In this document: positions 14,648 through 38,386 of the stretch, piece by piece
Position numbering within the stretch: position 1 is the first letter of the stretch
Layout: each line of letters begins with the position of its first letter
Origin: Candidatus Omnitrophota bacterium
Lineage (GTDB): Bacteria > Omnitrophota > Gorgyraeia > Aquiviventales > Aquiviventaceae
Assembly (NCBI GenBank): GCA_016190215.1
Contig: JACPRA010000027.1
Span: 6,659 to 70,658, forward strand
Length of the DNA stretch: 64,000 nt
Direction: 5' to 3'
Position numbers and translations under genes: made by a program
Notes under the pieces: model-generated
Databases searched by the model: none
Seen by the model: the letters and a program-made list of their open reading frames with translations, nothing else
Told to the model about the DNA's origin: nothing

Positions 14648-16429
14648 ATGCCCTCTCGTCTGATTTGGTTCCGGCGCGTCCTGGTGGCCGCGTTGGCATG
14701 CCTGGTGTTTCGGCTCGCCGGGCTGCAGTTGTGGGAGGGGGCTCGCTATCGCGCGCTGGCGGAGCGTAACCGGGTGCGGGTGGTGCCGGAGCCGGCCCCG
14801 CGCGGCCGGATCGTGGATCGCCACGGGCGTCTGTTGGCGGCGACGCGGCCGATCTTCCGCGTCGCGGCGATTCCGCAAGAGTTTTCCAGCGAGACGCGAT
14901 GGCGGTGGCGGGAGTCGGCCCAGCGCGCTGGCACGGTGTCCCGGGCCGAGGCCTTCGCCCGCCTGAGTCCCTTCGTGGGCGTGCCCCCCGCAGAGCTGGA
15001 GCAGCGGTTTCGGGCCCAGCGCACCCTCCCCTTTGTTCCCGCCACGATCGTGCCGGAGGTGACCAAGCTGCAGGCGTTGCAGATCGCCGAAGCGCATCTG
15101 GAGCTGCCGGGCATCGTGGTGGAGCCCGTACCCGTCCGCGACTACCCGCTGGGCTCCGCTGCGGCCCATCTCATCGGCTATGTCGGCCAGCCGACGGAGG
15201 AGGCGTTTCCGGTCCTGAAGCAGTACGGGGTGCGCCCCACCGATGCCGTCGGGCGGTCGGGAATCGAGAAAGAATTCGAGGCCTATCTCCGCGGCCGCTC
15301 CGGCGGGTCTGTCATCGAGGTGGATCATCGGGCGCGGCAAGTCCGGTTGCTGGGCCGCCGCGAGGCGGAAGCCGGACAGACTGTCGCGCTGACCGTTGAT
15401 GCGCAGCTCTGCTCGCTGATTGCGCGCCGGTTCGGGGATCAGCCCGGGGCGGCGGTCGTCGTGCAGCCCTCGACGGGAGAAGTGCTGGCCCTGGTGAGCG
15501 TGCCGGATTTTGACCCGGGCCTCTTTGTCCGGCAGGATCGCCGGGAACTGCAGCGCGTCCTCACGGACCCGCAGTCTCCGCTGCTGGATCGCGCGACGAT
15601 GGGACAATACACGCCCGGCTCCATCATCAAGCTGCTGACGGCGGCCATTGCGCTGCAGCAGCATCTCGTCACGCCGGCGACGCCGCTGCCGTGCCTCGGC
15701 TATGTCCAGATCGGCGACCGGCGCTTCCATTGCTGGAATCGCGATGGGCATGGCCCGGTGACGCTGCGCGAGGCCCTCACGGTGTCCTGCAACAGCTATT
15801 TTCTGGAGGTCGGACACCGGCTGGGGCTGGAGCGGCTTCGCGCCGGATTTCAGCGCGCCGGGTTGGGGCGGCGGACCGGCTGGGTCTTGGGCGATCAGCC
15901 CGGGCATCTTCCCCCGCCAAGCCGGCGGCTCACCGAAGGAGAGGCCACGCTGCTGGCCATCGGGCAGGGAGAAATCCTGCTCACGCCGCTGCAGGCGGCC
16001 GTCATGGTCGGCGCCGTCGCCAACGGCGGGTGGCTCATGCGGCCCTGGGTGGTCAAGCAAATCGGCGAGCGCGCGATTGAGCCGTCCGCCGGCGTCTCGC
16101 TGGGGTGGCCGCGCGAGACGTTCGATCGCTTGCGGGAGGGCATGGTGGCGGTGGTGAACGCTCCGCACGGCACCGGCGCGCACGCCCACAGCGATCAGGT
16201 GCGCATTGCGGGGAAAACCGGCACGGCACAAACCCACGTGCCGGGCCGGCCCAACGGCTGGTTCGTGGGATTTTGTCCCGTGGACCATCCGGTGGTGGCG
16301 CTGGCCGTGGTGGCGGAGCACGGCGGCTCCGGAGGCGAGCTGCCCTCGCTGATCGGCAAGGCGGTCTGTGAATACGTGGCGGCCCATCCCGAGGCTGTCT
16401 CGTCGCCCGAGGAGGCCGGCGCGTCATGA
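14648..16429 (+). CDS. mrdA: Penicillin-binding protein 2 (elongasome transpeptidase)
   Basis: SxxK (GSIIKL), SxN (SCNSYF) and KTG (GKTGTAQ) motifs. Located between mreD and rodA. Confidence 0.9.
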   Translation: MPSRLIWFRRVLVAALACLVFRLAGLQLWEGARYRALAERNRVRVVPEPAPRGRIVDRHGRLLAATRPIFRVAAIPQEFSSETRWRWRESAQRAGTVSRAEAFARLSPFVGVPPAELEQRFRAQRTLPFVPATIVPEVTKLQALQIAEAHLELPGIVVEPVPVRDYPLGSAAAHLIGYVGQPTEEAFPVLKQYGVRPTDAVGRSGIEKEFEAYLRGRSGGSVIEVDHRARQVRLLGRREAEAGQTVALTVDAQLCSLIARRFGDQPGAAVVVQPSTGEVLALVSVPDFDPGLFVRQDRRELQRVLTDPQSPLLDRATMGQYTPGSIIKLLTAAIALQQHLVTPATPLPCLGYVQIGDRRFHCWNRDGHGPVTLREALTVSCNSYFLEVGHRLGLERLRAGFQRAGLGRRTGWVLGDQPGHLPPPSRRLTEGEATLLAIGQGEILLTPLQAAVMVGAVANGGWLMRPWVVKQIGERAIEPSAGVSLGWPRETFDRLREGMVAVVNAPHGTGAHAHSDQVRIAGKTGTAQTHVPGRPNGWFVGFCPVDHPVVALAVVAEHGGSGGELPSLIGKAVCEYVAAHPEAVSSPEEAGAS

Positions 16430-17496
16430 GGAAGATACCGTGGGACATGCCGCTGCTGCTGGCCGCGGGGGCGTTGAGCTGCATCAGCCTGATCGCGTTG
16501 GCCTCCGCCGCGGCCACGCTGAATCCGTCCTTGGTCTGGCGGCAGGCCGTGTGGGTGGGAGTGGGGATGGGAGTAGCCTGGCTGATGGCCTCTGTGCCGT
16601 ATCCCAAGTGGCTCGATCTGGCGCCGGTCTGGTACGCGGGCGCGGTGGGGCTGCTGGTCATCGTCTTCATCGCCGGCACCATGAAGCTGGGCGCGACCCG
16701 CTGGCTGACGATCGTGGGATTCAGCCTGCAGCCGTCGGAATGCGCCAAGCTGGCCGTGGCGTTCCTCTTGGCCCGATCACTCGGCCATCGGAGCGCGCCA
16801 TTGTCCTGGCGGGACCTCGCCGGCTCCGCCCTGGTCGCCGGGCTGCCTGCGGTGCTGATTTTTCTCCAGCCGGATTTGGGCTCCAGCTCTATCCTGCTGG
16901 CCATGTGGCTGGGGGTCGTGTGGGTGGCCGGCATCGCGCCGAAGCAACTGCTGCTGTTGGGAATCGCGGCGGCGGCCGTGACGCCGATCGGCTGGCATGC
17001 GCTGAAGGAATTTCAACGCCTGCGCCTGCTGGCGTTCATCAACCCGCATGCGGATCCCCTGGGGGCGGGCTACACCATCATTCAATCGCAGATCGCCATC
17101 GGTTCCGGAGGGTTCTGGGGCCGGGGGTGGCTCTCCGGGACGCAGAGCCAGCTTAATTTCTTGCCCGAGCGCCACGCGGATTTCCTTTTCTCGGTCATCG
17201 GGGAAGAGTGGGGGTGGTGGGGAGCGGTCCTCGTCGTGGCTTGCATCGGATGCGTGATCTGGCGGGCGCTGGCGATCGCCCTGCGCAACTCGGAATCCCA
17301 GGGCCGGTTGCTGGCGGCGGCGCTGGTCTCTTGGCTGGGGTATCAGGCCGTCATCAATATCGCCATGGTCATGGGCATGGTGCCGGTGGTGGGTATTCCG
17401 TTGCCGTTCGTCAGCTACGGGGGGTCGGCCATGGTCATGACGTGGACCGCCGTCGGCCTCTTGCAAAGTATCCACCGCTTTGGGACTCGCTTCTGA
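16426..17496 (+). CDS. rodA: SEDS-family peptidoglycan glycosyltransferase RodA
   Basis: FtsW/RodA/SpoVE family polytopic protein (PERHADFLFSVIGEEWG, GIPLPFVSYGGS). The start overlaps the mrdA stop. Confidence 0.9.
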   Translation: MRKIPWDMPLLLAAGALSCISLIALASAAATLNPSLVWRQAVWVGVGMGVAWLMASVPYPKWLDLAPVWYAGAVGLLVIVFIAGTMKLGATRWLTIVGFSLQPSECAKLAVAFLLARSLGHRSAPLSWRDLAGSALVAGLPAVLIFLQPDLGSSSILLAMWLGVVWVAGIAPKQLLLLGIAAAAVTPIGWHALKEFQRLRLLAFINPHADPLGAGYTIIQSQIAIGSGGFWGRGWLSGTQSQLNFLPERHADFLFSVIGEEWGWWGAVLVVACIGCVIWRALAIALRNSESQGRLLAAALVSWLGYQAVINIAMVMGMVPVVGIPLPFVSYGGSAMVMTWTAVGLLQSIHRFGTRF

Positions 17497-17500
17497 ACAA

Positions 17501-17558
17501 CTGTGACAAGTGACAGGTGACATGTCACATGTAACCTGTAACATGTGACATATGTCAC
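17501..17558. repeat. Tandem heptamer array (NNGTRAC / GTCAC), about 8 units, partly self-complementary
   Basis: CTGTGAC AAGTGAC AGGTGAC ATGTCAC ATGTAAC CTGTAAC ATGTGAC ATATGTCAC. Confidence 0.85.
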
Positions 17559-17582
17559 TTTGCACCATTGAGGAAAGGTGCC

Positions 17583-17612
17583 TTGATGCGCGGCGAGCGC
17601 GTATGATATAGT
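17583..17612 (+). promoter_or_regulatory. Sigma70-type promoter (TTGATG-18 nt-TATAGT) feeding the riboswitch leader
   Basis: Read directly from the sequence. The spacing and -10 form match other candidate promoters in this window. Confidence 0.4.
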
Positions 17613-17619
17613 TCAGACA

Positions 17620-17753
17620 GAGACGATCGACGAACGGGCAAACCTCCGCCACACATCGTGGCGGACCCGCCGAGGGTGTAGGGGCGGGCGCCGCAAGGCA
17701 GGGACGCAAAGCTTCTGACCCCGCGCGCGCGGGGTAGCAGGGCTGCCGAATGG
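17620..17753 (+). promoter_or_regulatory. c-di-GMP-I (GEMM-I) riboswitch aptamer
   Basis: Contains the hallmark segments GGGCAAACC (17636-17644), GGGACGCAAAGC (17701-17712) and GGUAGCAGGGCUGCCGAAUGG (17732-17753). For comparison, V. cholerae Vc2 has GGGCAAACC...GGGACGCAAAGCC...GGUAGCGGGGUUACCGAUGG. The first hairpin carries an enlarged branched insert. Confidence 0.65.
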
Positions 17754-17766
17754 CACACGTGGACCC

Positions 17767-17799
17767 GCACGCCCTGGCACCAGGGCGTGCAATTTTTTT
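17767..17799 (+). terminator. Intrinsic terminator (riboswitch expression platform)
   Basis: GCACGCCCT-GGCACC-AGGGCGTGC stem-loop followed by AATTTTTTT. It sits just before the SD (GAGGGGGAG) and the ATG at 17816. Confidence 0.8.
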
Positions 17800-17815
17800 G
17801 AGGGGGAGCAGGCGC

Positions 17816-18073
17816 ATGAACGGACCGCATCTTCGGGCGCACCGGGTCATTGCCTCCTTAAACCGCGAGCAGGTGGACGCCTTGGATAAGGTCGGCAAGG
17901 ATGCCCTCTTTTCCGCCGGGGTGAAGCTCTCCCGCACGCACATCATCTCCGTCTTGGTCAACGTGCTCCAACGGCTCCACGTCAGCGGCAACGGGGTTCG
18001 GACCCCGGACGAGCTGGAGCAGCGGATTCTAGGCCGGGTCACGAAAGGTCGAGGAGGAAAGCCCCATGGCTGA
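17816..18073 (+). CDS. Small protein, possible ribbon-helix-helix fold (function unknown)
   Basis: Strong SD upstream of the ATG at 17816; the track start at 17750 lies inside the riboswitch and terminator. The N-terminus HRVIASLNREQVDALDKV looks like a beta-strand plus helix. The stop overlaps the next gene. Confidence 0.45.
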   Translation: MNGPHLRAHRVIASLNREQVDALDKVGKDALFSAGVKLSRTHIISVLVNVLQRLHVSGNGVRTPDELEQRILGRVTKGRGGKPHG

Positions 18074-19499
18074 AACGCGGGAACCCCGGCGGCTGGGCGT
18101 CGTGCCCCAGGGCATTCGTTTGGACGTGCTGTGCGCGTTTTTGCTGATGTCGGTGGTGCCGCTGGTGGTGTTGCTGCTGGTCGCCGGCTGGTTTGCGTTT
18201 CCAAGCGTTCGGGAGTTCTACCACTTGGAGCAGTGGTTTCCGCTGATCGCGAGCCCCTCGGAGGCCACATGGTGGCTGCTGAGCATCCTGACGCTGACGA
18301 TGGCCATTTCGCTGCTGGGCAGCGCTTACCTGGCCGTGAAGATCATCACGCCGGTCATTCATTTGAGCCATCACGCCAAATCGCTGGCCGCCGGCGATTA
18401 TGACGCGCGAATGACCGATGACGCCCGCACCGGCGAGCTGGGCGATCTCAGCGCCGCCTTGAAGAAGCTGACGTCGCAGATCCGCACGAATATGGTCGAG
18501 CTCAAGCAGCTGGGCGATCGCACCACCCAGATGAACTTTGAGATCAACACGCGCATGGTAATGCTCTCCGGCCTGCTGCAGATCGGCGAGCTGATCGGCG
18601 GTGGGGCGGGGTTGGACATCGTGCTGGACCTGGTGGTGGAGAAGCTGGCCTTGCTGGATCCCCAAGGGTTCAGCTTCCTGTCCTTGCAGCCGGTGGAAGG
18701 CTTGCCCGTGACCTTGCGGCGCAGCCACAACGTGGATCTGGGCCGCCTGACGATCCCGCCGCCGAAGCCGGCCACGGTCACGATCGACGCCGGGCATCGC
18801 CCGAGCGCCGGCCTGGAGCCGCTCTGGAAGCAGTTGGACGGGGCCAATGTGGTGTTACAGCCGGTGTTCGTCCGCGGCAAGCCGGTCGGGATGCTGGGGG
18901 TGGGCAATCGGTATCCGGAGTTCGCTTGGACGCAGGAGTCTGTGGACTTGGCCGGGATCTTCGCGAAGCAGATTTCCATTGCGCTGGAGAACGATTTGCT
19001 GTTGCGCAAGACCAAGCTGCTGGCCATCCATGATGAGCTGACCGGCGCGTATAACGAAACCTATGTCCGGCAGCGGCTGACGGAAGAGCTTAAGCGCGCC
19101 CTCTTGTACCAGCGCCCCTGCGCGCTGGCGATGTTCGCGATCCCCGGCTTGGCGGACTATCGGCGGCGCGCCGGCGAGCCGCAGAGCGAGCAAGTGCTGA
19201 AGCAGGCCGTGCGGATCATCCAGGAATCCGTGACGGACATTGACCGGGTCGGCCGGTTCGGCGGCAACGAGATCGCGGTGCTGCTGCCGGAGCGGAGCAA
19301 GCGCCAGGCCTTGGAGGTGGCGGAGGCCGTGCGCCGGCGCGCCAACGCGTCGTTGGCGGAGCTCGCCGCCGGCGATGCGCTGGCCCTGGTCAGCAGTGTC
19401 GTCGAAAATCCACTGGATGGCGTGACGGCGGATGAGCTGATCACCAAGGCCTCCGCGGCCCTCTCGAAGGCGTCTCCAACACAAGGACACGGCGCATGA
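18066..19499 (+). CDS. Membrane HAMP-GAF-GGDEF protein with degenerate active site (GGNEI)
   Basis: Two TM helices and a HAMP-like segment (PVIHLSHHAKSLAAGDYDARM...GELGDLSAALKKL). C-terminal GGDEF fold (DELTGAYNETYV...RFGGNEIAVLLPE). GGDEF is replaced by GGNEI (19260-19274), and the metal-binding DxD region reads FAIPGL. Confidence 0.75.
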   Translation: MAETREPRRLGVVPQGIRLDVLCAFLLMSVVPLVVLLLVAGWFAFPSVREFYHLEQWFPLIASPSEATWWLLSILTLTMAISLLGSAYLAVKIITPVIHLSHHAKSLAAGDYDARMTDDARTGELGDLSAALKKLTSQIRTNMVELKQLGDRTTQMNFEINTRMVMLSGLLQIGELIGGGAGLDIVLDLVVEKLALLDPQGFSFLSLQPVEGLPVTLRRSHNVDLGRLTIPPPKPATVTIDAGHRPSAGLEPLWKQLDGANVVLQPVFVRGKPVGMLGVGNRYPEFAWTQESVDLAGIFAKQISIALENDLLLRKTKLLAIHDELTGAYNETYVRQRLTEELKRALLYQRPCALAMFAIPGLADYRRRAGEPQSEQVLKQAVRIIQESVTDIDRVGRFGGNEIAVLLPERSKRQALEVAEAVRRRANASLAELAAGDALALVSSVVENPLDGVTADELITKASAALSKASPTQGHGA

Positions 19500-20572
19500 G
19501 CGTTTCCGCCCGACCCACCATGGAACACCTGCTGCGGCTGATGGTGGAGCAGGGGGCCACGGATTTGCATCTGACCGCCAATGCCCCGCCGCACCTGCGG
19601 CTGGACGAACAGCTGGTGGCGACGGACCACGGCGTGCTCAAAGGCGAGGACGTGCGCGAGCTGGCGCACAGCTTGTTGTCGCCCGACAAAGCGGAACGGC
19701 TGGAGCGGTGGAAAGAGCTGGATTTCGCGTTTTCCATCGAGGGGCTGGCGCGGTTCCGCGCCAACTATTTCTTCCAGCAGGGCTATATCGGGGTGGCGAT
19801 CCGCATGCTGCCGTTTCGCATCCAAGGCTTCGAGGAGCTGGGCCTGCCTGCCAAGGTCTTGACGGAGTGGTGCAATAAGCCCAAGGGGCTGGTCCTCATC
19901 ACCGGGTCCACCGGCTCGGGTAAAACCACGACCCTCGCGGCCATGGTGGACTACTTGAACAACACCAAGCCCTACCACATCGTCACCATCGAAGACCCGG
20001 TGGAGTATGTGCATACCGGCAAGCGCGCGATCGTGGACCAGCGGGAAGTCGGCGCGGATACGCAGTCCTTCGCGCAGGCCTTGAAGCACTCGCTCCGCCA
20101 GGATCCGGACGTCATCCTGATCGGAGAGATGCGGGACCTGGAAACCATTGAGACGGCGCTCATCATGGCGGAAACCGGCCATCTGGTCTTGGCGACCCTC
20201 CATACGTCCGACGCCGTGCAGACGGTCAACCGGATCGTGGACGTGTTCCCGTCCCATCAGCAAAACCAGGTGCGCAGCCAGCTGTCGCTGGAGCTGTTGG
20301 GCGTGCTCTCCCAACAGTTGATCCCCAAATCCAGCGGCCGGGGGCGCGTGCTGGCCGTGGAAGTGCTGCTGGCCAATCATGCCGTGCGGTCGCTGGTGCG
20401 GGAGCAGAAAGTCCACCAGCTCTATTCCGTGATCCAGACGGCCCAGAAAGACGGCATGAAGACGATGAACCAGTCCTTATATGAGCTGTATCTCAACCGG
20501 GTCATTACGCTGGAGGAGGCGTTGGCGCGGTCCACGGACCCCGACGACCTCTTGCGGCTGACGAAACGCTGA
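19496..20572 (+). CDS. pilT: Type IV pilus retraction ATPase PilT
   Basis: Walker A GSTGSGKTTTLAAM, the AIRNLIRE-like VRSLVREQK, and a PilT-type length of 358 aa with no N-terminal T2SSE_N domain. Confidence 0.9.
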   Translation: MSVSARPTMEHLLRLMVEQGATDLHLTANAPPHLRLDEQLVATDHGVLKGEDVRELAHSLLSPDKAERLERWKELDFAFSIEGLARFRANYFFQQGYIGVAIRMLPFRIQGFEELGLPAKVLTEWCNKPKGLVLITGSTGSGKTTTLAAMVDYLNNTKPYHIVTIEDPVEYVHTGKRAIVDQREVGADTQSFAQALKHSLRQDPDVILIGEMRDLETIETALIMAETGHLVLATLHTSDAVQTVNRIVDVFPSHQQNQVRSQLSLELLGVLSQQLIPKSSGRGRVLAVEVLLANHAVRSLVREQKVHQLYSVIQTAQKDGMKTMNQSLYELYLNRVITLEEALARSTDPDDLLRLTKR

Positions 20573-20600: not shown

Positions 20601-21095
20601 ATGGCCAAGCGCATCATCACAAAGCGGATCGGCGACATCCTGCTGGAGCGGGGAATCGTCAACCGCCAGGAGCTGGAGCAGGCCTTGGCGCAGCAAAAGG
20701 AGCGCGGGGGCCTGTTGGGCCAAGTGCTGGTGGAGATGGGGGCGGTCACGGAAGAGGAGGTCGCCCTGGCGCTGACGGCCCAGTACGGTTTTCCCTATCT
20801 GCCGCTGGAGAGCTATGAGATTGACGACGCGATTGCCCGCTTGGTGCCGGAACAGGTGGCCCGGCAATACGTGCTGATTCCGATTGATCAGATCGGGAAT
20901 GCCTTGTCCGTGGCCATGGCGGATCCCTCCAACCTCCAGGCCGTGGAAGACATCGAGCTGCTCACCAGCTGTATCGTGCAGACGTTTGTCAGCACGCCCT
21001 CGGACATCCGCAAGGCGATCGGCCGCTGCTATCCCTCCGCGTCCGCCGGTCCCGCGCCGGCGTCCGGGCCCTCACCCAGCGAGCCGCGGCCATGA
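20601..21095 (+). CDS. Stand-alone T2SSE_N/MshEN domain protein (predicted c-di-GMP receptor)
   Basis: Residues 9-61 give two 24-residue MshEN motifs separated by a 5-residue spacer: RIGDILLERGIVNRQELEQALAQQ-KERGG-LLGQVLVEMGAVTEEEVALALTAQ. No ATPase domain; the protein ends in a Pro/Ser-rich tail. Confidence 0.75.
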   Translation: MAKRIITKRIGDILLERGIVNRQELEQALAQQKERGGLLGQVLVEMGAVTEEEVALALTAQYGFPYLPLESYEIDDAIARLVPEQVARQYVLIPIDQIGNALSVAMADPSNLQAVEDIELLTSCIVQTFVSTPSDIRKAIGRCYPSASAGPAPASGPSPSEPRP

Positions 21096-22843
21096 TGAGC
21101 TTCAAGGACCGCATGATGGAGGCCCTCGTGGGGAACCACGTGTTGACGCGCGAGCAGATCGAAGCCGCCCTGAAATTTCAACAGACCAGCGGCGGCAGCC
21201 TGCAGAAGGTGCTGGTCGAGCGCGGGTTCATCACGGAGAGCGCCTTGCTCTCCGCCATCAGCCAGGGGCTGGGCATCCCGCAGATTCGGCTGGCGCGCAT
21301 GAAGATCGACCCGACGCTCAAAACGCTGCTTTCCAGGGAAATCGCCAAGCAGTACCAGCTGATCCCGATCGCCTGCATGGGGCAGACCCTGACGGTGGCG
21401 ATGGCCGATCCGCTGAACATTTTTGCGCTCGATACCTTGACGACCATGACGGGCTTGTCCATCAATCCGCTCCTGGCGACCGCCGGGGACATCCAGGAAG
21501 CCATTGACGTGTACTACGGCACCGGGGTCGAGGAAACATTGCGGCAGATGGTCCGGGAGACGCGGCCCGTCGCGCCGGACCGCGCGCCGGCTCGTCCGCC
21601 CCGCCCGGAGGAGCCGCCGAAGAAATCCGCCCGGCCGGCGGGCTTGACCCAAGAGCCTCCCGTCGTGCGGATGACCGATATGCTGTTGGCGAAGGCGGTG
21701 CAGCTGCGCGCGTCGGATTTATTGATCGAGCCGCTGGAGCATGCCTTCCGCGTGCGCTATCGCGTGGACGGCGTGCTGCAGGAAGGCGAGGCGCCGCCCC
21801 GGCAGTTCCAGCAGGCCGTGGTCTCCCGGATCAAGATCCTGGCGGAATTGAACATTGCCGAGCGCCGCCTGCCGCAGGATGGTCATTTCAACGCGCTCAT
21901 GGACGGCCGCCCGGTGGACTTCCGCGTGTCCGTGCTGCCCGCGACGTTCGGAGAGCGGGTGGTGCTGCGGATTTTGGATAAGCGGCAGGTCAAGCTGGAT
22001 CTGAGGACCCTCGGATTCCACCCGGATGATTTGAGCATGCTGCAGCGTCTGGCTCAGCAGCCGCACGGGTTGGTGCTGTGCACCGGGCCCACCGGCTCGG
22101 GCAAAACCACGACCTTGTATTCCCTGCTGACGACGGTGGATCGCCCCGAGAAAAACCTCGTCACGGTGGAGGACCCCGTCGAATTCCAGTTGGAAGGCGT
22201 CAACCAGGTCACGGCCCGCGCCGACATCGGCTTGACGTTCGCCGCGGCGCTGCGGTCCATCCTCCGCCAGGATCCGGATGTCATCATGGTGGGAGAGATC
22301 CGTGACGCCGAAACCGCGGACATGGCCGTCAAGGCCGCCTTGACCGGGCACTTGGTGCTCAGCACCCTCCACACGAACAGCGCCGCCGGCACCGTCGTGC
22401 GGCTGGTCAATATGGGCGTGGAGCCCTTCCTGCTGAACTCGTCGCTCCTGGCGGTTATTGGGCAGCGGCTTGTCCGGCGCATCTGCTCTTCGTGCCAGAA
22501 GGCCTATCGTCCGCCGGAGGCCCTTGCCAAAAAATTCGGCCTGGTGGATGCCCGCGGGCGCGTCGTGGAGCTGGTCAAGGGGGAAGGCTGCGGGGCGTGC
22601 TTTCAATCCGGCTACCGGGGGCGGGAGGTGATCGCGGAGGTGCTGACGATCGTGCCCCCGATGCGCGAGCTGATCCTGCACCGTCCCCAGGAGCGCGAGC
22701 TGGAAGAGAGCGCCCGCCAGTCCGGCATGCGGACCTTGCGCGAGCACGGCCTGCAGAAAGCGATCGCGCACCTGACGTCGTTGGATGAGGTCATCCGCAC
22801 CACGGTCGGCGAATCGGTGGAGCTGGGGAGTGCCGCGCCATGA
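21092..22843 (+). CDS. pilB: Type IV pilus/T2SS assembly ATPase (PilB/GspE family), copy 1
   Basis: T2SSE_N domain, Walker A CTGPTGSGKTTTLYS, Asp/His boxes, and a tetracysteine motif (CSSC...CGAC). Confidence 0.9.
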   Translation: MMSFKDRMMEALVGNHVLTREQIEAALKFQQTSGGSLQKVLVERGFITESALLSAISQGLGIPQIRLARMKIDPTLKTLLSREIAKQYQLIPIACMGQTLTVAMADPLNIFALDTLTTMTGLSINPLLATAGDIQEAIDVYYGTGVEETLRQMVRETRPVAPDRAPARPPRPEEPPKKSARPAGLTQEPPVVRMTDMLLAKAVQLRASDLLIEPLEHAFRVRYRVDGVLQEGEAPPRQFQQAVVSRIKILAELNIAERRLPQDGHFNALMDGRPVDFRVSVLPATFGERVVLRILDKRQVKLDLRTLGFHPDDLSMLQRLAQQPHGLVLCTGPTGSGKTTTLYSLLTTVDRPEKNLVTVEDPVEFQLEGVNQVTARADIGLTFAAALRSILRQDPDVIMVGEIRDAETADMAVKAALTGHLVLSTLHTNSAAGTVVRLVNMGVEPFLLNSSLLAVIGQRLVRRICSSCQKAYRPPEALAKKFGLVDARGRVVELVKGEGCGACFQSGYRGREVIAEVLTIVPPMRELILHRPQERELEESARQSGMRTLREHGLQKAIAHLTSLDEVIRTTVGESVELGSAAP

Positions 22844-24558
22844 GCAGCATGCAAACCCGTCTCGTTGACGTCTTGATTGCCAAGGGATTGGCCAGCCGGG
22901 AACAGCTGGTTGCGCTCCAAACCGAGGCGCGCAGCGGCAAGCGGTTCGGACAGCTGCTGATTCAGCAGGGCATCCTGACCGCGGAGACGCTCGTCGGGCT
23001 GCTCTCGCAGGAGCTGGGGGTGCCCAGCTTATCGCTGTCCAAATATCGGTTGGATCCGAAAGTGGCGGGGTTGATTCCGGAGCGGGTGGCCCGCCAATAC
23101 ACGATGATCCCGATTTCCCAGTTCGGCCAGCGGCTCGTGGTGGCCATGGCCGACCCGGTGGACTTGTTCGCCCTGGAAGACGTGAAAGCCCTCACGCACT
23201 ATGCGGTGGATCCCGTGCTGGCCAAGGCCTCGGAAATCGAGCAGGCCATCGAGCAGAGCTATGGCGGCATGCGGGCCAGTTTTCCATCAACGCCTCCGGC
23301 GGCGGACGCCGGCGGGGGCGAGGACAAGGACGGCGGCGCCCTCCAGAGCGGGGAATTGGAGAGCGCGGTCCAGCTCCTCCTGGCCGAGGATGCCAGCGAC
23401 GCCCCGGCCGTCAAGGTGATCAACCTGATGCTGCTCGAGGCCCTGCGCCAGCGGGCCTCCGACATCCACCTCGAGCCGGCGTCCGACGCCGTGCGCGTGC
23501 GCTACCGGGTTGATGGGCGCCTGGCGGAAGCCCACCGGTTGCCGAAGCGGGCGCAAAGCACGGTGCTCACCCGCCTAAAAATCATGGCGGGGCTGGACAT
23601 TACCGAATCGCGCTTGCCGCAGGATGGGCGGTTTAAAGTCCGGCTGGATGTGCGGGAGGTGGATTTCCGCGTCTCGGTGCTGCCGGTGGTGCACGGCAAC
23701 AAAATCGTCTTGCGCGCGCTGGATAAGAGCAGCCTCGCCGCGGGGTTGGAGCAATTAGGGTTTTCCCCGCGATCGGTCGCCCCCCTCAAAGACGCCGTGG
23801 CGCGGCCCCACGGCATGATCTTGGTGACCGGACCCACCGGCTCCGGCAAATCCACGACGCTGTATTCCATGCTGCAGCAGCTCAACCTGCCCACGCGCAA
23901 CATCATCACCATCGAGGACCCGGTGGAGTATCAGCTCAACGGCGCCACCCAGGTCCAGGACAACCCGGAGATCGGGCTGACCTTCGCGTCCGGGTTGCGG
24001 TCCATCCTGCGGCAGAATCCCGACATCGTGATGATCGGGGAAATCCGCGACTTTGAAACCGCCGACATCGCCATGAAGGCCAGCCTGACCGGCCACCTGG
24101 TGTTGTCCACCCTGCATACCAACGACGCGCCCTCGTCCGTGACCCGGTTGGTGGACATGGGGGTGGAGCCCTTCCTCATCGCCTCCAGCCTCACCGTGAT
24201 CGAGGCGCAGCGGCTGGTGCGCAAGCTCTGCGCGAAGTGCCGGCAGCCCATCGAGCCGCCCCGGGCGCTCCTGGAACAGTTGGCGTTCAGCCCGCCGCCG
24301 GGGAGCGCGTTCTACCGCGCCGTCGGCTGCCCCAGCTGCAACGGGATGGGCTACCGCGGGCGGATGGGGCTGATCGAGGTCTGCCCGGTGGATGAAGGGT
24401 TGCGCGAGCGGATCGTCTCCCAGGCCCACGCCGGGGAGTTGAAAGCGTATGCGCGCGCCCACCTGGGCATGGTGACGTTGCAGGAGGATGGGATCGCCAA
24501 AGCCGCCGCCGGCTTGACGACGCTGGAAGAAATCCTGCAGGCGACGTCGGAGCTGTGA
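22840..24558 (+). CDS. pilB: Type IV pilus/T2SS assembly ATPase (PilB/GspE family), copy 2
   Basis: T2SSE_N domain with a good second MshEN-like half (RFGQLLIQQGILTAETLVGLLSQ), Walker A VTGPTGSGKSTTLYS, and tetracysteine (CAKC...CPSC). Confidence 0.9.
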   Translation: MSSMQTRLVDVLIAKGLASREQLVALQTEARSGKRFGQLLIQQGILTAETLVGLLSQELGVPSLSLSKYRLDPKVAGLIPERVARQYTMIPISQFGQRLVVAMADPVDLFALEDVKALTHYAVDPVLAKASEIEQAIEQSYGGMRASFPSTPPAADAGGGEDKDGGALQSGELESAVQLLLAEDASDAPAVKVINLMLLEALRQRASDIHLEPASDAVRVRYRVDGRLAEAHRLPKRAQSTVLTRLKIMAGLDITESRLPQDGRFKVRLDVREVDFRVSVLPVVHGNKIVLRALDKSSLAAGLEQLGFSPRSVAPLKDAVARPHGMILVTGPTGSGKSTTLYSMLQQLNLPTRNIITIEDPVEYQLNGATQVQDNPEIGLTFASGLRSILRQNPDIVMIGEIRDFETADIAMKASLTGHLVLSTLHTNDAPSSVTRLVDMGVEPFLIASSLTVIEAQRLVRKLCAKCRQPIEPPRALLEQLAFSPPPGSAFYRAVGCPSCNGMGYRGRMGLIEVCPVDEGLRERIVSQAHAGELKAYARAHLGMVTLQEDGIAKAAAGLTTLEEILQATSEL

Positions 24559-24568
24559 GGCCCCCGCC

Positions 24569-25777
24569 ATGCCGACCTTTGCGTACGTCGTCAAAGACAA
24601 AGCGGGCCGGACGCACAACGGCATGCTGGAGACCCCCTCCCGCCAATCCCTTATCGAGTTGTTGTGGAAGCAGGATTTCGTCGTGCTTTCGATCGAAGAG
24701 CGGCAGGCCGCCCGGCGGATGGCGGCGTGGTCCGCCCCCCGCGTGCCCGCGCAGCACCTCGTCATCTTTGCGAGGCAGTTGGCCACCATGGTGGCCAGCG
24801 GCATCCCCATCCTCGGCGCGCTGGACATCCTGCAATCGCAACTGGAGGACCGGGGGTTCCGCCAGGTGCTCAAGCAGATCCAGCGCGATGTCGAAAGCGG
24901 CAGCAGCCTGTCGGAGAGCCTGGCCAAGTATCCGCGCATTTTCTCCGATCTCTTTGTCAACATGATCAAGGCCGGCGAGTCCTCCGGCCGCCTGGATGAA
25001 ATCCTCGACCGGCTCGCCGGCTATATCGAGAAAACCGACGGGCTGCGCCGGAAGGTCAGCACGAGCATGTTTTACCCGATCCTGGTGTCGGTCCTGGCCG
25101 CGGGGATCACCGGGTTTCTGGTCATCGTCGTGGTGCCGAAATTCCGCGAAATTTTCACCTCCCTCGGCGGGCAGTTGCCGCTGCCCACCCAGTTGCTGTT
25201 GAACGCCAGCGATTACCTGCGCCGGTATTTCCTGGCCTATGTGGCCGTGGGCGTCCTGGCGGTGTTTGCGGGGCGCGCGCTCCTCGGCACGAAGCCGGGC
25301 CGGTTGTGGTTTGATCGGATGAAGCTCAAGTTTCCGGTGTTCGGGCCGTTGCTGCAAAAGGTGGCGATCGCCCGCTTCGCCCGTACGTTGGCGACGCTGG
25401 TGCGCTCCGGCGTGCCCATCCTGGCGGCGTTGGAGATCGTGGCCAGGACCGCCGGCAATGCGGCCATTGAGCGGGCGGTCATGAAGGCGCGGACCAGCAT
25501 TCGCGAGGGGGTGAACATCGCCGATCCGCTGACCCAAAGCGGCATGTTTCCCCCTATGGTGACGCGGATGATCGCCGTGGGGGAGAAGACCGGCGAACTG
25601 GAAAAAATGCTCTCCAAGATCGCGGAATTTTATGAGAGCGAAGTGGATGCCATGGTCTCCGCGCTGACGAGCCTGATTGAGCCGATCGTCATCGCCGTCC
25701 TGGGGGTGATCATCGGCGGGATCGTGGTCGCGCTGTTCCTGCCGATTTTCAAGATCTCGCAACTGGTCACCGGATAA
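24569..25777 (+). CDS. pilC: Type IV pilus platform protein PilC (GspF family)
   Basis: Duplicated GspF domains and three TM segments. Located after the pilB genes. Confidence 0.9.
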   Translation: MPTFAYVVKDKAGRTHNGMLETPSRQSLIELLWKQDFVVLSIEERQAARRMAAWSAPRVPAQHLVIFARQLATMVASGIPILGALDILQSQLEDRGFRQVLKQIQRDVESGSSLSESLAKYPRIFSDLFVNMIKAGESSGRLDEILDRLAGYIEKTDGLRRKVSTSMFYPILVSVLAAGITGFLVIVVVPKFREIFTSLGGQLPLPTQLLLNASDYLRRYFLAYVAVGVLAVFAGRALLGTKPGRLWFDRMKLKFPVFGPLLQKVAIARFARTLATLVRSGVPILAALEIVARTAGNAAIERAVMKARTSIREGVNIADPLTQSGMFPPMVTRMIAVGEKTGELEKMLSKIAEFYESEVDAMVSALTSLIEPIVIAVLGVIIGGIVVALFLPIFKISQLVTG

Positions 25778-36446: not shown

Positions 36447-36518
36447 GGGCCGGTAGCTCAGTGGTAGAGCAGGAGACTCATAATCTCTTGGTCGGACGTT
36501 CGATCCGTCCCCGGCCCA
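36447..36518 (+). tRNA. tRNA with CAT anticodon (elongator type; resembles tRNA-Ile2/lysidine class more than initiator)
   Basis: Hand-folded cloverleaf. Acceptor GGGCCGG/CCGGCCC, anticodon loop CTCATAA, T-loop TTCGATC. G1-C72 pairing and no GGG/CCC anticodon stem argue against an initiator. No encoded CCA. Confidence 0.85.
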
Positions 36519-36552
36519 TGTTGTTTCGAGGCAAGGGACGGACGGTAAGCTT

Positions 36553-36626
36553 GGGCGATTAGCTCAGTCGGTTAGAGCGCATGCCTCACATGCATGAGGT
36601 CAGAGGTTCGAGTCCTCTATCGCCCA
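36553..36626 (+). tRNA. tRNA-Val (CAC)
   Basis: Hand-folded cloverleaf. Acceptor GGGCGAT/ATCGCCC, anticodon loop CTCACAT, T-loop TTCGAGT. No encoded CCA. Confidence 0.9.
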
Positions 36627-37975: not shown

Positions 37976-38363
37976 GAGCCGTCACGCGGGACGCTGGATG
38001 GTCGCTCTCCGCCGCCGTGCGTGGCGGAGGGAGGAAAGTCCGAGCTCCGCAGGGCAGCGTACCCCGATAACCTCGGGGCCTCTCCCGCCACAGTTCGTTG
38101 GCGGGGGGGCGGATAAGAGCCACAGAGACGAGTCCTTCGGCAAGGTGATGCCTTGCTGAGGGGGTGAAACGCGGCAATCTCTACGCGGAGCAAGGCCAAA
38201 TGACCTGACGGTTGTCCGCCCAGCGTGGTGGATAACCAGCGGTAGCCCGCCGCCGGTCAGGAAGGTCGGCCGCACGAGCCCGGTCGCAAGGCCGGGCCCA
38301 GATGGATGACCATCGTCCGCCACAGTACGTTGGCGGAAACAAAACTCGGCTTACATGCGGCTC
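37976..38363 (+). ncRNA. rnpB: RNase P RNA, bacterial type A
   Basis: Conserved GAGGGAGGAAAGTCCGAGCTCC, AGCAAGGCCAAAT, AGATGGATGACCATCGTCC and ACAAAACTCGGCTTA segments. P1 pairs GAGCCG (37976) with CGGCTC (38358). Confidence 0.9.
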
Positions 38364-38386
38364 GCGCGGCGGCTCTCATTCTTTCA

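Follow-up and report, generated by a model that had tools for sequence, protein, structure and literature searches.

A predicted class I cyclic di-GMP riboswitch with a branched first hairpin precedes a type IV pilus gene cluster in Omnitrophota

The DNA analysed here is a 64-kb stretch from Omnitrophota (the window; all positions are window coordinates) in which rodA is followed by a cluster of type IV pilus genes. The intergenic region between them holds, in order after rodA, a promoter, an aptamer of the class I family for cyclic dimeric guanosine monophosphate (c-di-GMP-I, or GEMM-I), a 16-nt spacer, a terminator, a Shine-Dalgarno (SD) sequence and the ATG of the first gene. The element is very probably a c-di-GMP-I riboswitch that acts through its terminator, and it is the sole riboswitch match in the window in a scan with 4227 Rfam families. 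Features of the locus are as follows.

16426-17496, rodA (Pfam FTSW_RODA_SPOVE), the gene 5' of the riboswitch region
17583-17612, plus strand, sigma-70-type promoter TTGATG-18-TATAGT (consensus scan)
17627-17750, plus strand, c-di-GMP-I (GEMM-I) aptamer (Rfam RF01051)
17643-17702, plus strand, P1b four-way junction with base pairs C17643-G17702 and C17644-G17701 and junction nucleotides U17645 and A17665
17646-17664, plus strand, inserted hairpin A of 7 bp, CCGCCAC / loop ACAUC / GUGGCGG (folding)
17666-17688, plus strand, inserted hairpin B, CCCGCC / 11-nt loop GAGGGUGUAGG / GGCGGG (folding)
17689-17700, plus strand, hairpin C, the distal P1b, GCC-GCAA-GGC, with a GYRA-type GNRA tetraloop at 17693-17696
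17710-17744, plus strand, P2 hairpin without the 11-nt tetraloop receptor (receptor columns deleted in the Rfam alignment)
17738-17743, plus strand, candidate antiterminator CAGGGC (P2 3' strand), able to pair with GCCCUG of the terminator 5' arm at 17771-17776 (inverted repeat)
17767-17799, plus strand, intrinsic terminator, stem GCACGCCCUG / loop GCAC / CAGGGCGUGC at 17767-17790, then AA and U7 at 17793-17799 (terminator scan)
17800-17808, plus strand, SD sequence GAGGGGGAG
17816-17818 (ATG) to the stop at 18073, plus strand, first gene, encoding a conserved orphan protein of 85 amino acids (translation)
18066-19499, plus strand, HAMP-GAF-GGDEF gene (Pfam; motif GGNEI)
19496-20572, plus strand, PilT gene (Pfam)
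20601-21095, plus strand, gene for an MshEN-only protein (Pfam)
21092-22843, plus strand, first PilB gene (Pfam)
22840-24558, plus strand, second PilB gene (Pfam)
24569-25777, plus strand, PilC gene (Pfam)
after PilC, up to ~30055, plus strand, genes for pilins, PilM, PilN and PilO (Pfam)

The match to RF01051 is full-length (model positions 1-87 of 87), and its 42.9 bits exceed the gathering score of 35; E is 4.7e-05 when the entire window is compared with the 4227 families and 3.1e-07 locally. RF01051 is the best match within its clan. An earlier reading of the same DNA (the original prediction) had pointed out the GEMM-I signature segments and proposed an RF01051 scan of the region as a check; the segments all lie where it placed them (GGGCAAACC at 17636-17644, GGGACGCAAAGC at 17701-17712 and GGUAGCAGGGCUGCCGAAUGG at 17733-17753) and the scan returned a significant plus-strand match. 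In the folded element, P1a consists of the pairs G17638-C17707 and C17639-G17706, followed by an internal loop in which AAA (17640-17642) faces GAC (17703-17705), and P1 and P2 are joined by an AAA linker (17708-17710). P2 carries the bulge A17736-G17737, of which G17737 is the equivalent of G83 in the Vc2 aptamer of Vibrio cholerae, the partner of C44 (17705). The base helix of P2 is 100% paired in an alignment of 10 sequences, with double changes in 6 of its 7 pairs. The tetraloop receptor in P2 is present in about half of GEMM members, together with GAAA loops, and GYRA loops normally occur without it (PMC1950547), so its absence is expected for a GYRA loop such as GCAA, and membership of c-di-GMP-I does not require it. 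Apart from the receptor, the window has the features of the class: a score above gathering, the P1 geometry (in elaborated form), the contact nucleotides, the linker and P2, and a 5' position with an expression platform. Class II (RF01786) gave no match at its gathering score in the window and none at E<=10 in 17480-17900.

Orthologous loci place the same element at the same position. A scan with the small protein yielded a comparative set of 50 loci, one genome per species, recorded as metagenome-assembled genomes (MAGs) of Omnitrophota/Omnitrophica or as 'uncultured Planctomycetales/Planctomycetia' MAGs. Directly 5' of the small gene, 38 of the 50 have a match to the Rfam c-di-GMP-I clan; 10 of the 12 missed by Rfam hold, on inspection, an aptamer interrupted by large insertions, several of which were recovered by a custom covariance model. 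The aptamer is thereby found at 48/50 orthologous positions and is absent only from L005 and L033. The order rodA, aptamer, small open reading frame, (GGDEF), pilT, MshEN, pilB is kept in L001-L034 and L050. In the AT-rich clade L035-L049, the aptamer and small reading frame are kept and no pilT or pilB lies within 4 kb. The promoter was also part of the original prediction and is present, with its -35 element TTGATG at 17583-17588, an extended -10 TG at 17604-17605 and the -10 element TATAGT at 17607-17612. The arrangement TTGATG-N18-TGnTATAGT recurs in 28/51 orthologous loci, which make up the entire pilus-linked clade, and this conservation supports a predicted transcription start near 17619 (17617-17620), upstream of the aptamer.

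The nucleotides that contact the ligand point to c-di-GMP. In Vc2 numbering (G20 being the unpaired G before G21-C22, A47 the nucleotide that follows G45-C46 and C92 the first C after P2), they are G20 (17637), A47 (17708) and C92 (17746). A47 and C92 are invariant across all 39 Rfam-detected aptamers, the window included; G20 is found in 37/39 as aligned by Rfam, and in 38/39 once L003 is corrected, where an apparent A20 is a misalignment of a window-type aptamer that has G20. With all three nucleotides canonical, the aptamer most likely binds c-di-GMP, which is the answer that the sequence gives to a choice between c-di-GMP and 3'3'-cyclic GMP-AMP (cGAMP) that the original prediction had left open. 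The cGAMP-selective GEMM-Ib subclass is recognised by an A at this first position, 20. Membership of GEMM-Ib was rejected on G17637, and membership of the GGC variant family (RF03167, c-di-GMP-I-GGC), defined by G47, was rejected on A17708. RF03167 nevertheless gives the best score for ~20 orthologs (for example, L011, L013, L017, L018, L031 and L035-L049). These calls were rejected as well: the RF03167 consensus GACGCGAAgC has G47, which none of them has, and this leaves them as ordinary c-di-GMP-I aptamers with G20, A47 and C92. The higher score of the GGC model seems to come from peripheral features that these orthologs share with that variant, namely an outer P1 and a receptor-less P2, and automatic annotation would mislabel them. 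One ortholog, L015 (2673-2807), has a real A20 (GAAAAGAGCAAAC), has no terminator and lies just 9 nt away from where the protein match begins.

The first hairpin is the unusual part of the element. By definition, GEMM P1 consists of a 2-bp stem, a 3-nt internal loop and a 6-bp stem with a GNRA cap (PMC1950547). In the window, the 6-bp GNRA-capped P1b is kept as 2 (or 3) bp at its base plus 4 (or 3) bp in hairpin C, the alternatives arising at the mismatch C17689/A17700, where U17645-A17700 may pair instead; hairpins A and B branch off its 5' strand. The spacing from C22 to G45, exactly 22 nt in 31/39 orthologs, is 66 nt in the window. These are the two extra local hairpins that the original prediction had seen in a long first hairpin, and its suspicion of a structural variant is borne out by their conservation. 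For 10 aligned sequences scored on the proposed structure, 96.2% of cells are paired versus 82.1% in 500 shuffles, two-sided changes occur in 21 pairs, and none of the covariation measures was reached by the shuffles (0/500); when partners are slid out of register, pairing falls to 35-46%. The P1b base covaries (CC/GG with CU/AG), the helix of hairpin B (helix 4) is 100% paired with double changes in 4/5 pairs, and the helix of hairpin C has 97.5% of its cells paired and compensatory changes in all four pairs. Hairpin A had been imposed on 8 of the 10 sequences by the search pattern; in loci found via the protein alone it is identical in L007 and L008 and fully compensated in L003 (UCAGCCG/CGGCUGA) and L020. 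Only sub-threshold minus-strand chance matches (anti-hemB, nhaA-I) were obtained for the inserted hairpins among other Rfam families.

The same architecture recurs beyond the pilus context. A metagenome scan with GGCNAACNNCCGCCACNNNNNGTGGCGG returned 20 loci, 12 of which (ten distinct sequences) have hairpins A and B inside P1b; these 12 precede various genes, and one ends at a contig edge. A custom covariance model (R1) gives 103.5 bits for the window, 97.2 for L007, 69.7 for L003, 69.4 for L008 and 68.1 for L020, with other orthologs at <=52, and of these five window-type loci the Rfam gathering score finds just the window and (misaligned) L003. In L001, the closest relative (86% identity at the protein level), P1b is plain, and L029 and L030 carry unrelated two-hairpin insertions elsewhere on the same strand, the stem again totalling 6 bp. 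Judged from covariation, the first hairpin is a conserved four-way junction that elaborates the periphery of the aptamer in some, but not all, of its relatives.

Other insertions were seen in these aptamers. A second hot spot, beside the ligand pocket, lies between C44 of the GAC bulge and G45, where two hairpins (~40-90 nt) are inserted in L004, L012, L021, L022, L024, L027, L032, L025, L040, L008, L052 and L074-L076; most of these aptamers fall below the Rfam gathering score. Four loci (L061 3557-3714, L054 1072-1292, L050 3806-3953 and L071 ~380-470) have an extra module, either GGCGAAC/GACAAAC plus a hairpin or two unrelated hairpins, 5' of a complete second GGCAAAC with a plain P1b, which hints that these forms and the four-way-junction type are related by partial duplication or loss.

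The expression platform is a separate intrinsic terminator. The hairpin and T7 tract named by the original prediction, and the SD sequence and ATG that it placed after them, are all present; the stem has 10 bp, 8 of them G-C. It starts 23 nt past the end of P2 (17744) and 16 nt past the Rfam match, and the minimum free energy fold of the full leader holds both P2 and the terminator. The terminator does not overlap the aptamer, so it and the bound aptamer can form together. Of the 39 Rfam-detected orthologs, ~33 have a terminator after the aptamer (31 by a strict finder plus three imperfect ones by eye, with that of L003 discounted from the strict count because it falls within the coding region); there is none in five or six loci whose spacers are very short. 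Among the orthologs, complementarity links the 5' core strand of the aptamer (for example, GUGAAAAGGGC or UAAAGGCAA) with the 5' arm and loop of the terminator, or with its loop and 3' arm, at a mean z of -1.59 over 33 loci and z<-2 in 12, compared with a mean z of 0 for a control segment, the last ~26 nt of the aptamer match. Compensatory changes between core strand and terminator occur in L023 (GUGAACAGGGC/GCCC-GUUCAC), L019 (GCGACAAGGGC/GCCCUUGCCGC), L062 (GUGAAAAGG/CCUUUUCAC) and L068 (AUGAAAAGG/CCUUUUCAU). In the window, L001 and L002, GGGC/GCCC is all that is left of this complementarity, and the three share instead the CAGGGC/GCCCUG pairing of the P2 3' strand, compensated in L071 as UCGGGC/GCCCGA. 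The loop and 3' strand of hairpin B (GGUGUAGGGGCG, 17675-17686) can also pair with the terminator 5' arm (CGCCCUGGCACC, 17770-17781), and do so in folds of truncated transcripts. Energy-based evidence for hairpin B as the antiterminator was dropped, with shuffles equal or better in 63/300 and 101/500 cases, and it is kept as a candidate only.

Taken together, these features suggest a class I c-di-GMP riboswitch that probably works as an OFF switch. Transcription would start at the conserved promoter near 17619. With c-di-GMP bound, the aptamer strands would be locked and the terminator would form, ending transcription before the small reading frame, the degenerate GGDEF gene and the pilT, MshEN, pilB, pilB and pilC genes. 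With ligand absent, an aptamer strand (in the window most likely the candidate CAGGGC at 17738-17743) would pair with the terminator 5' arm and RNA polymerase would read through. High c-di-GMP would in this way lower transcription of the pilus motor genes, and several downstream products with MshEN domains may bind c-di-GMP themselves, giving layered control.

Several observations weigh against parts of this scheme. The Rfam score is modest, owing to the insertion and the absent receptor. The nucleotide that corresponds to G20 influences selectivity among cyclic dinucleotides but does not act as a hard filter (PMC9262584), and position 18 is C in the window, shared by L001 only, where 32/39 aptamers have A. 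The antiterminator pairings proposed for the window are not above shuffles (101/500 for insert and arm, 269/500 for P2 3' strand and arm, 63/300 for arm gain), and complementarity of the CAGGGC type is absent in L074 and L077. The 10-bp G-C-rich terminator also greatly exceeds the 6-bp candidate antiterminator in stability, and any switching would therefore need to be under kinetic control.

The main competitor as to direction is that the same c-di-GMP-I riboswitch is an ON switch, in which ligand blocks the terminator and induces the pilus genes. The downstream operon encodes MshEN domains, a route by which c-di-GMP often promotes the function of type IV pili. ON switching is common among GEMM RNAs, in which the 3' side of P2 then shares sequence with the terminator 5' arm (PMC1950547), and the Geobacter pilM riboswitch, likewise 5' of pilus genes, is ON (PMC9262584). 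At this locus, however, the terminator lies 23 nt past P2, where a bound aptamer cannot sequester it, and ortholog terminators complement the very core strands that ligand would lock away. Locking the core strand in the aptamer would free the terminator, which is the logic of an OFF switch; ON is accordingly unlikely, and OFF has a fair lead as the predicted direction, at roughly two chances in three.

Readings that deny c-di-GMP control altogether fare worse. That the aptamer senses cGAMP, as GEMM-Ib does, or another dinucleotide is improbable: the GEMM-Ib fold is nearly indistinguishable and its members were first annotated as c-di-GMP riboswitches (PMC9262584), and both the A20 of L015 and the atypical position 18 of the window fit such a shift, but G20 is present in the window and in 38/39 aptamers, A47 and C92 are canonical, and the operon encodes the GGDEF and MshEN domains of c-di-GMP signalling. 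Marginally less probable still is an aptamer that is a relic disabled by its 44-nt insertion, beside a terminator that is constitutive or controlled by a protein (for example, a factor that binds hairpin A). The insertion is absent from the closest relative, L001, the score of 42.9 bits compares with 50-69 in most orthologs, and hairpin A keeps its sequence CCGCCAC/GUGGCGG to an unusual degree in L007, L008 and L020. Nevertheless, the core nucleotides are all intact, the 6-bp GNRA-capped P1b is exactly preserved, and the architecture recurs with compensatory changes and intact cores in independent loci with different genes downstream, which points to selection for a functional aptamer. Chance resemblance in G+C-rich intergenic DNA might be suspected, since the region has 71-72% G+C and its fold energy is unexceptional against shuffles (z=-1.53). 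A score above the curated Rfam threshold (E=4.7e-05), the same position in 48/50 orthologous loci and strong covariation stand against it, and on these comparative data chance is effectively refuted. The c-di-GMP-responsive OFF switch is therefore the preferred reading in what follows.

The predicted window switch resembles parts of several characterized systems. Cd1 of Clostridioides difficile (5' of flgB) likewise pairs a class I aptamer with a separate terminator able to coexist with the bound aptamer, and in Cd1, an experimentally shown OFF switch that controls a motility apparatus operon, ligand favours termination (PMC9262584). In Cd1 the P1 hairpin is plain and the antiterminator has been mapped, whereas the window has the P1b four-way junction and a candidate antiterminator and precedes a type IV pilus cluster. 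With Vc2 the window shares the equivalents of G20, A47, C92 and C44/G83, the AAA internal loop, the AAA linker and a 6-bp GNRA-capped P1b. The GAAA tetraloop of Vc2 docks into an 11-nt P2 receptor, whereas the window has a GCAA loop and no receptor and, unlike Vc2, two extra P1b hairpins and C instead of A at position 18. The Geobacter pilM GEMM-Ib riboswitch is similar in placing a GEMM-I fold 5' of type IV pilus genes under transcriptional control (PMC9262584, PMC1950547), control that for the window is predicted; it differs in having A20, sensing cGAMP and acting as an ON switch through a terminator that overlaps the aptamer, the two folds being mutually exclusive, whereas the window has G20 and a non-overlapping terminator. 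Two terminators, as in L035-L049, are described for the c-di-GMP-I riboswitch Bc1 of Bacillus thuringiensis (PMC11218506); the window has a single one.

In the AT-rich clade L035-L049 (for example, L041 3900-3967 and L045 3905-3975), two tandem terminators follow the aptamer, the first with UUGCCUUUA and the second with GUUUGCC. Both complement the aptamer core strand AAAGGCAAAC, which suggests control of two terminators by one aptamer strand. The expression platforms of L063 (1007-1129 and downstream) and L066 (684-803 and downstream) hold a near-exact second copy of the P2 3' strand and its tail (for example, GAGAUGGCCGGGCUGCCGAACCAG and GAGAUGGCCGAGCUACCGAACCAG), which looks like a decoy strand for alternative pairing.

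The gene context given by the original prediction (small protein, degenerate GGDEF protein, pilT, MshEN, two pilB genes and pilC) was confirmed by Pfam scans. Genes 3' of the riboswitch overlap or are separated by gaps of <=30 nt, and from these overlaps and short gaps we infer a single operon. By motif inspection, the GGDEF protein is degenerate, with the active-site motif GGNEI, no RxxD I-site, a HAMP domain and a partial GAF domain. The MshEN-only protein has 164 amino acids, and its first c-di-GMP-binding motif is intact (RIGDILLERGIVNRQELEQALAQQ), fitting the MshEN c-di-GMP-binding consensus, RLGxx[LVI][LVI]xxG[LVI][LVI]xxxxLxxxLxxQ. Both PilB ATPases have MshEN N-termini. The degenerate GGDEF protein and the stand-alone MshEN protein may thus be c-di-GMP receptors encoded under the riboswitch.

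The 85-residue protein has 138 homologs and a highly conserved core, HRVIASLNREQVDxLDKxGKDALFSAGVKLSRT; the window copy is identical to a protein attributed to a 'Candidatus Omnitrophica bacterium' MAG. It gave no match in Pfam (E up to 10), in a PDB profile search or with Foldseek against the PDB. Its AlphaFold2 model has four helices with a predicted local distance difference test (pLDDT) score of 72; a ribbon-helix-helix fold was considered and found unsupported, the model being all-helical. The gene follows the aptamer in 48/50 loci. This includes the clade without pilT or pilB, so the small protein is the most constant partner of the riboswitch. It is flagged here as the gene most tightly coupled to the element, and as a candidate new player in c-di-GMP or pilus regulation.

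The basic finding is an ordinary one, that of one more member, with a modest structural variation, of a known class, both the class and its link to pilus and GGDEF genes having been known since 2007-2008. Pilus, GGDEF and HAMP genes were already listed downstream of GEMM in 2007 (PMC1950547). What is new is the conserved four-way junction in P1b, the near-universal association with an orphan protein in Omnitrophota and a blind spot of Rfam for insertion-bearing members; in the literature searched we found no account of these points, of c-di-GMP or a riboswitch in Omnitrophota, or of a four-way junction in GEMM-I, an absence that is not proof. With the element in 48/50 genomes sampled, Omnitrophota, uncultured bacteria with very small cells, would appear to couple c-di-GMP directly to the transcription of genes for the type IV pilus motor. 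Insertions in the core helices (at P1b and, in relatives, between C44 and G45) leave the ligand pocket intact but put 10 of the 48 orthologous aptamers below the Rfam threshold, and therefore censuses may undercount c-di-GMP riboswitches in such lineages. A bolder proposal, which we regard as doubtful, is that the inserted hairpins are a functional add-on (stabilising the receptor-less aptamer, taking part in antitermination or binding a second factor) that defines a GEMM-I subclass largely missed by Rfam, and that together with the 85-residue protein this subclass forms a phylum-wide c-di-GMP control module for type IV pili.

Two further observations concern the window at large. Between the rodA stop and the promoter (17499-17560), hexamers of the forms GTGACA, TGTCAC and TGTAAC are crowded, with 8 in ~60 nt versus 26 in all 64 kb, and GTGACATGTCAC and GTGACATATGTCAC within this array are perfect palindromes. 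Four more sites cluster near 1338, and repeats of the GTGACA type also occur 5' of the promoter in L001, L020 and L050. One possible role of the crowded sites is as an operator array, another as a terminator-like structure for rodA. Elsewhere in the window (36447-36626 and 37986-38369) are two tRNA genes and a bacterial class A RNase P RNA (169 bits), which are ordinary housekeeping RNAs.

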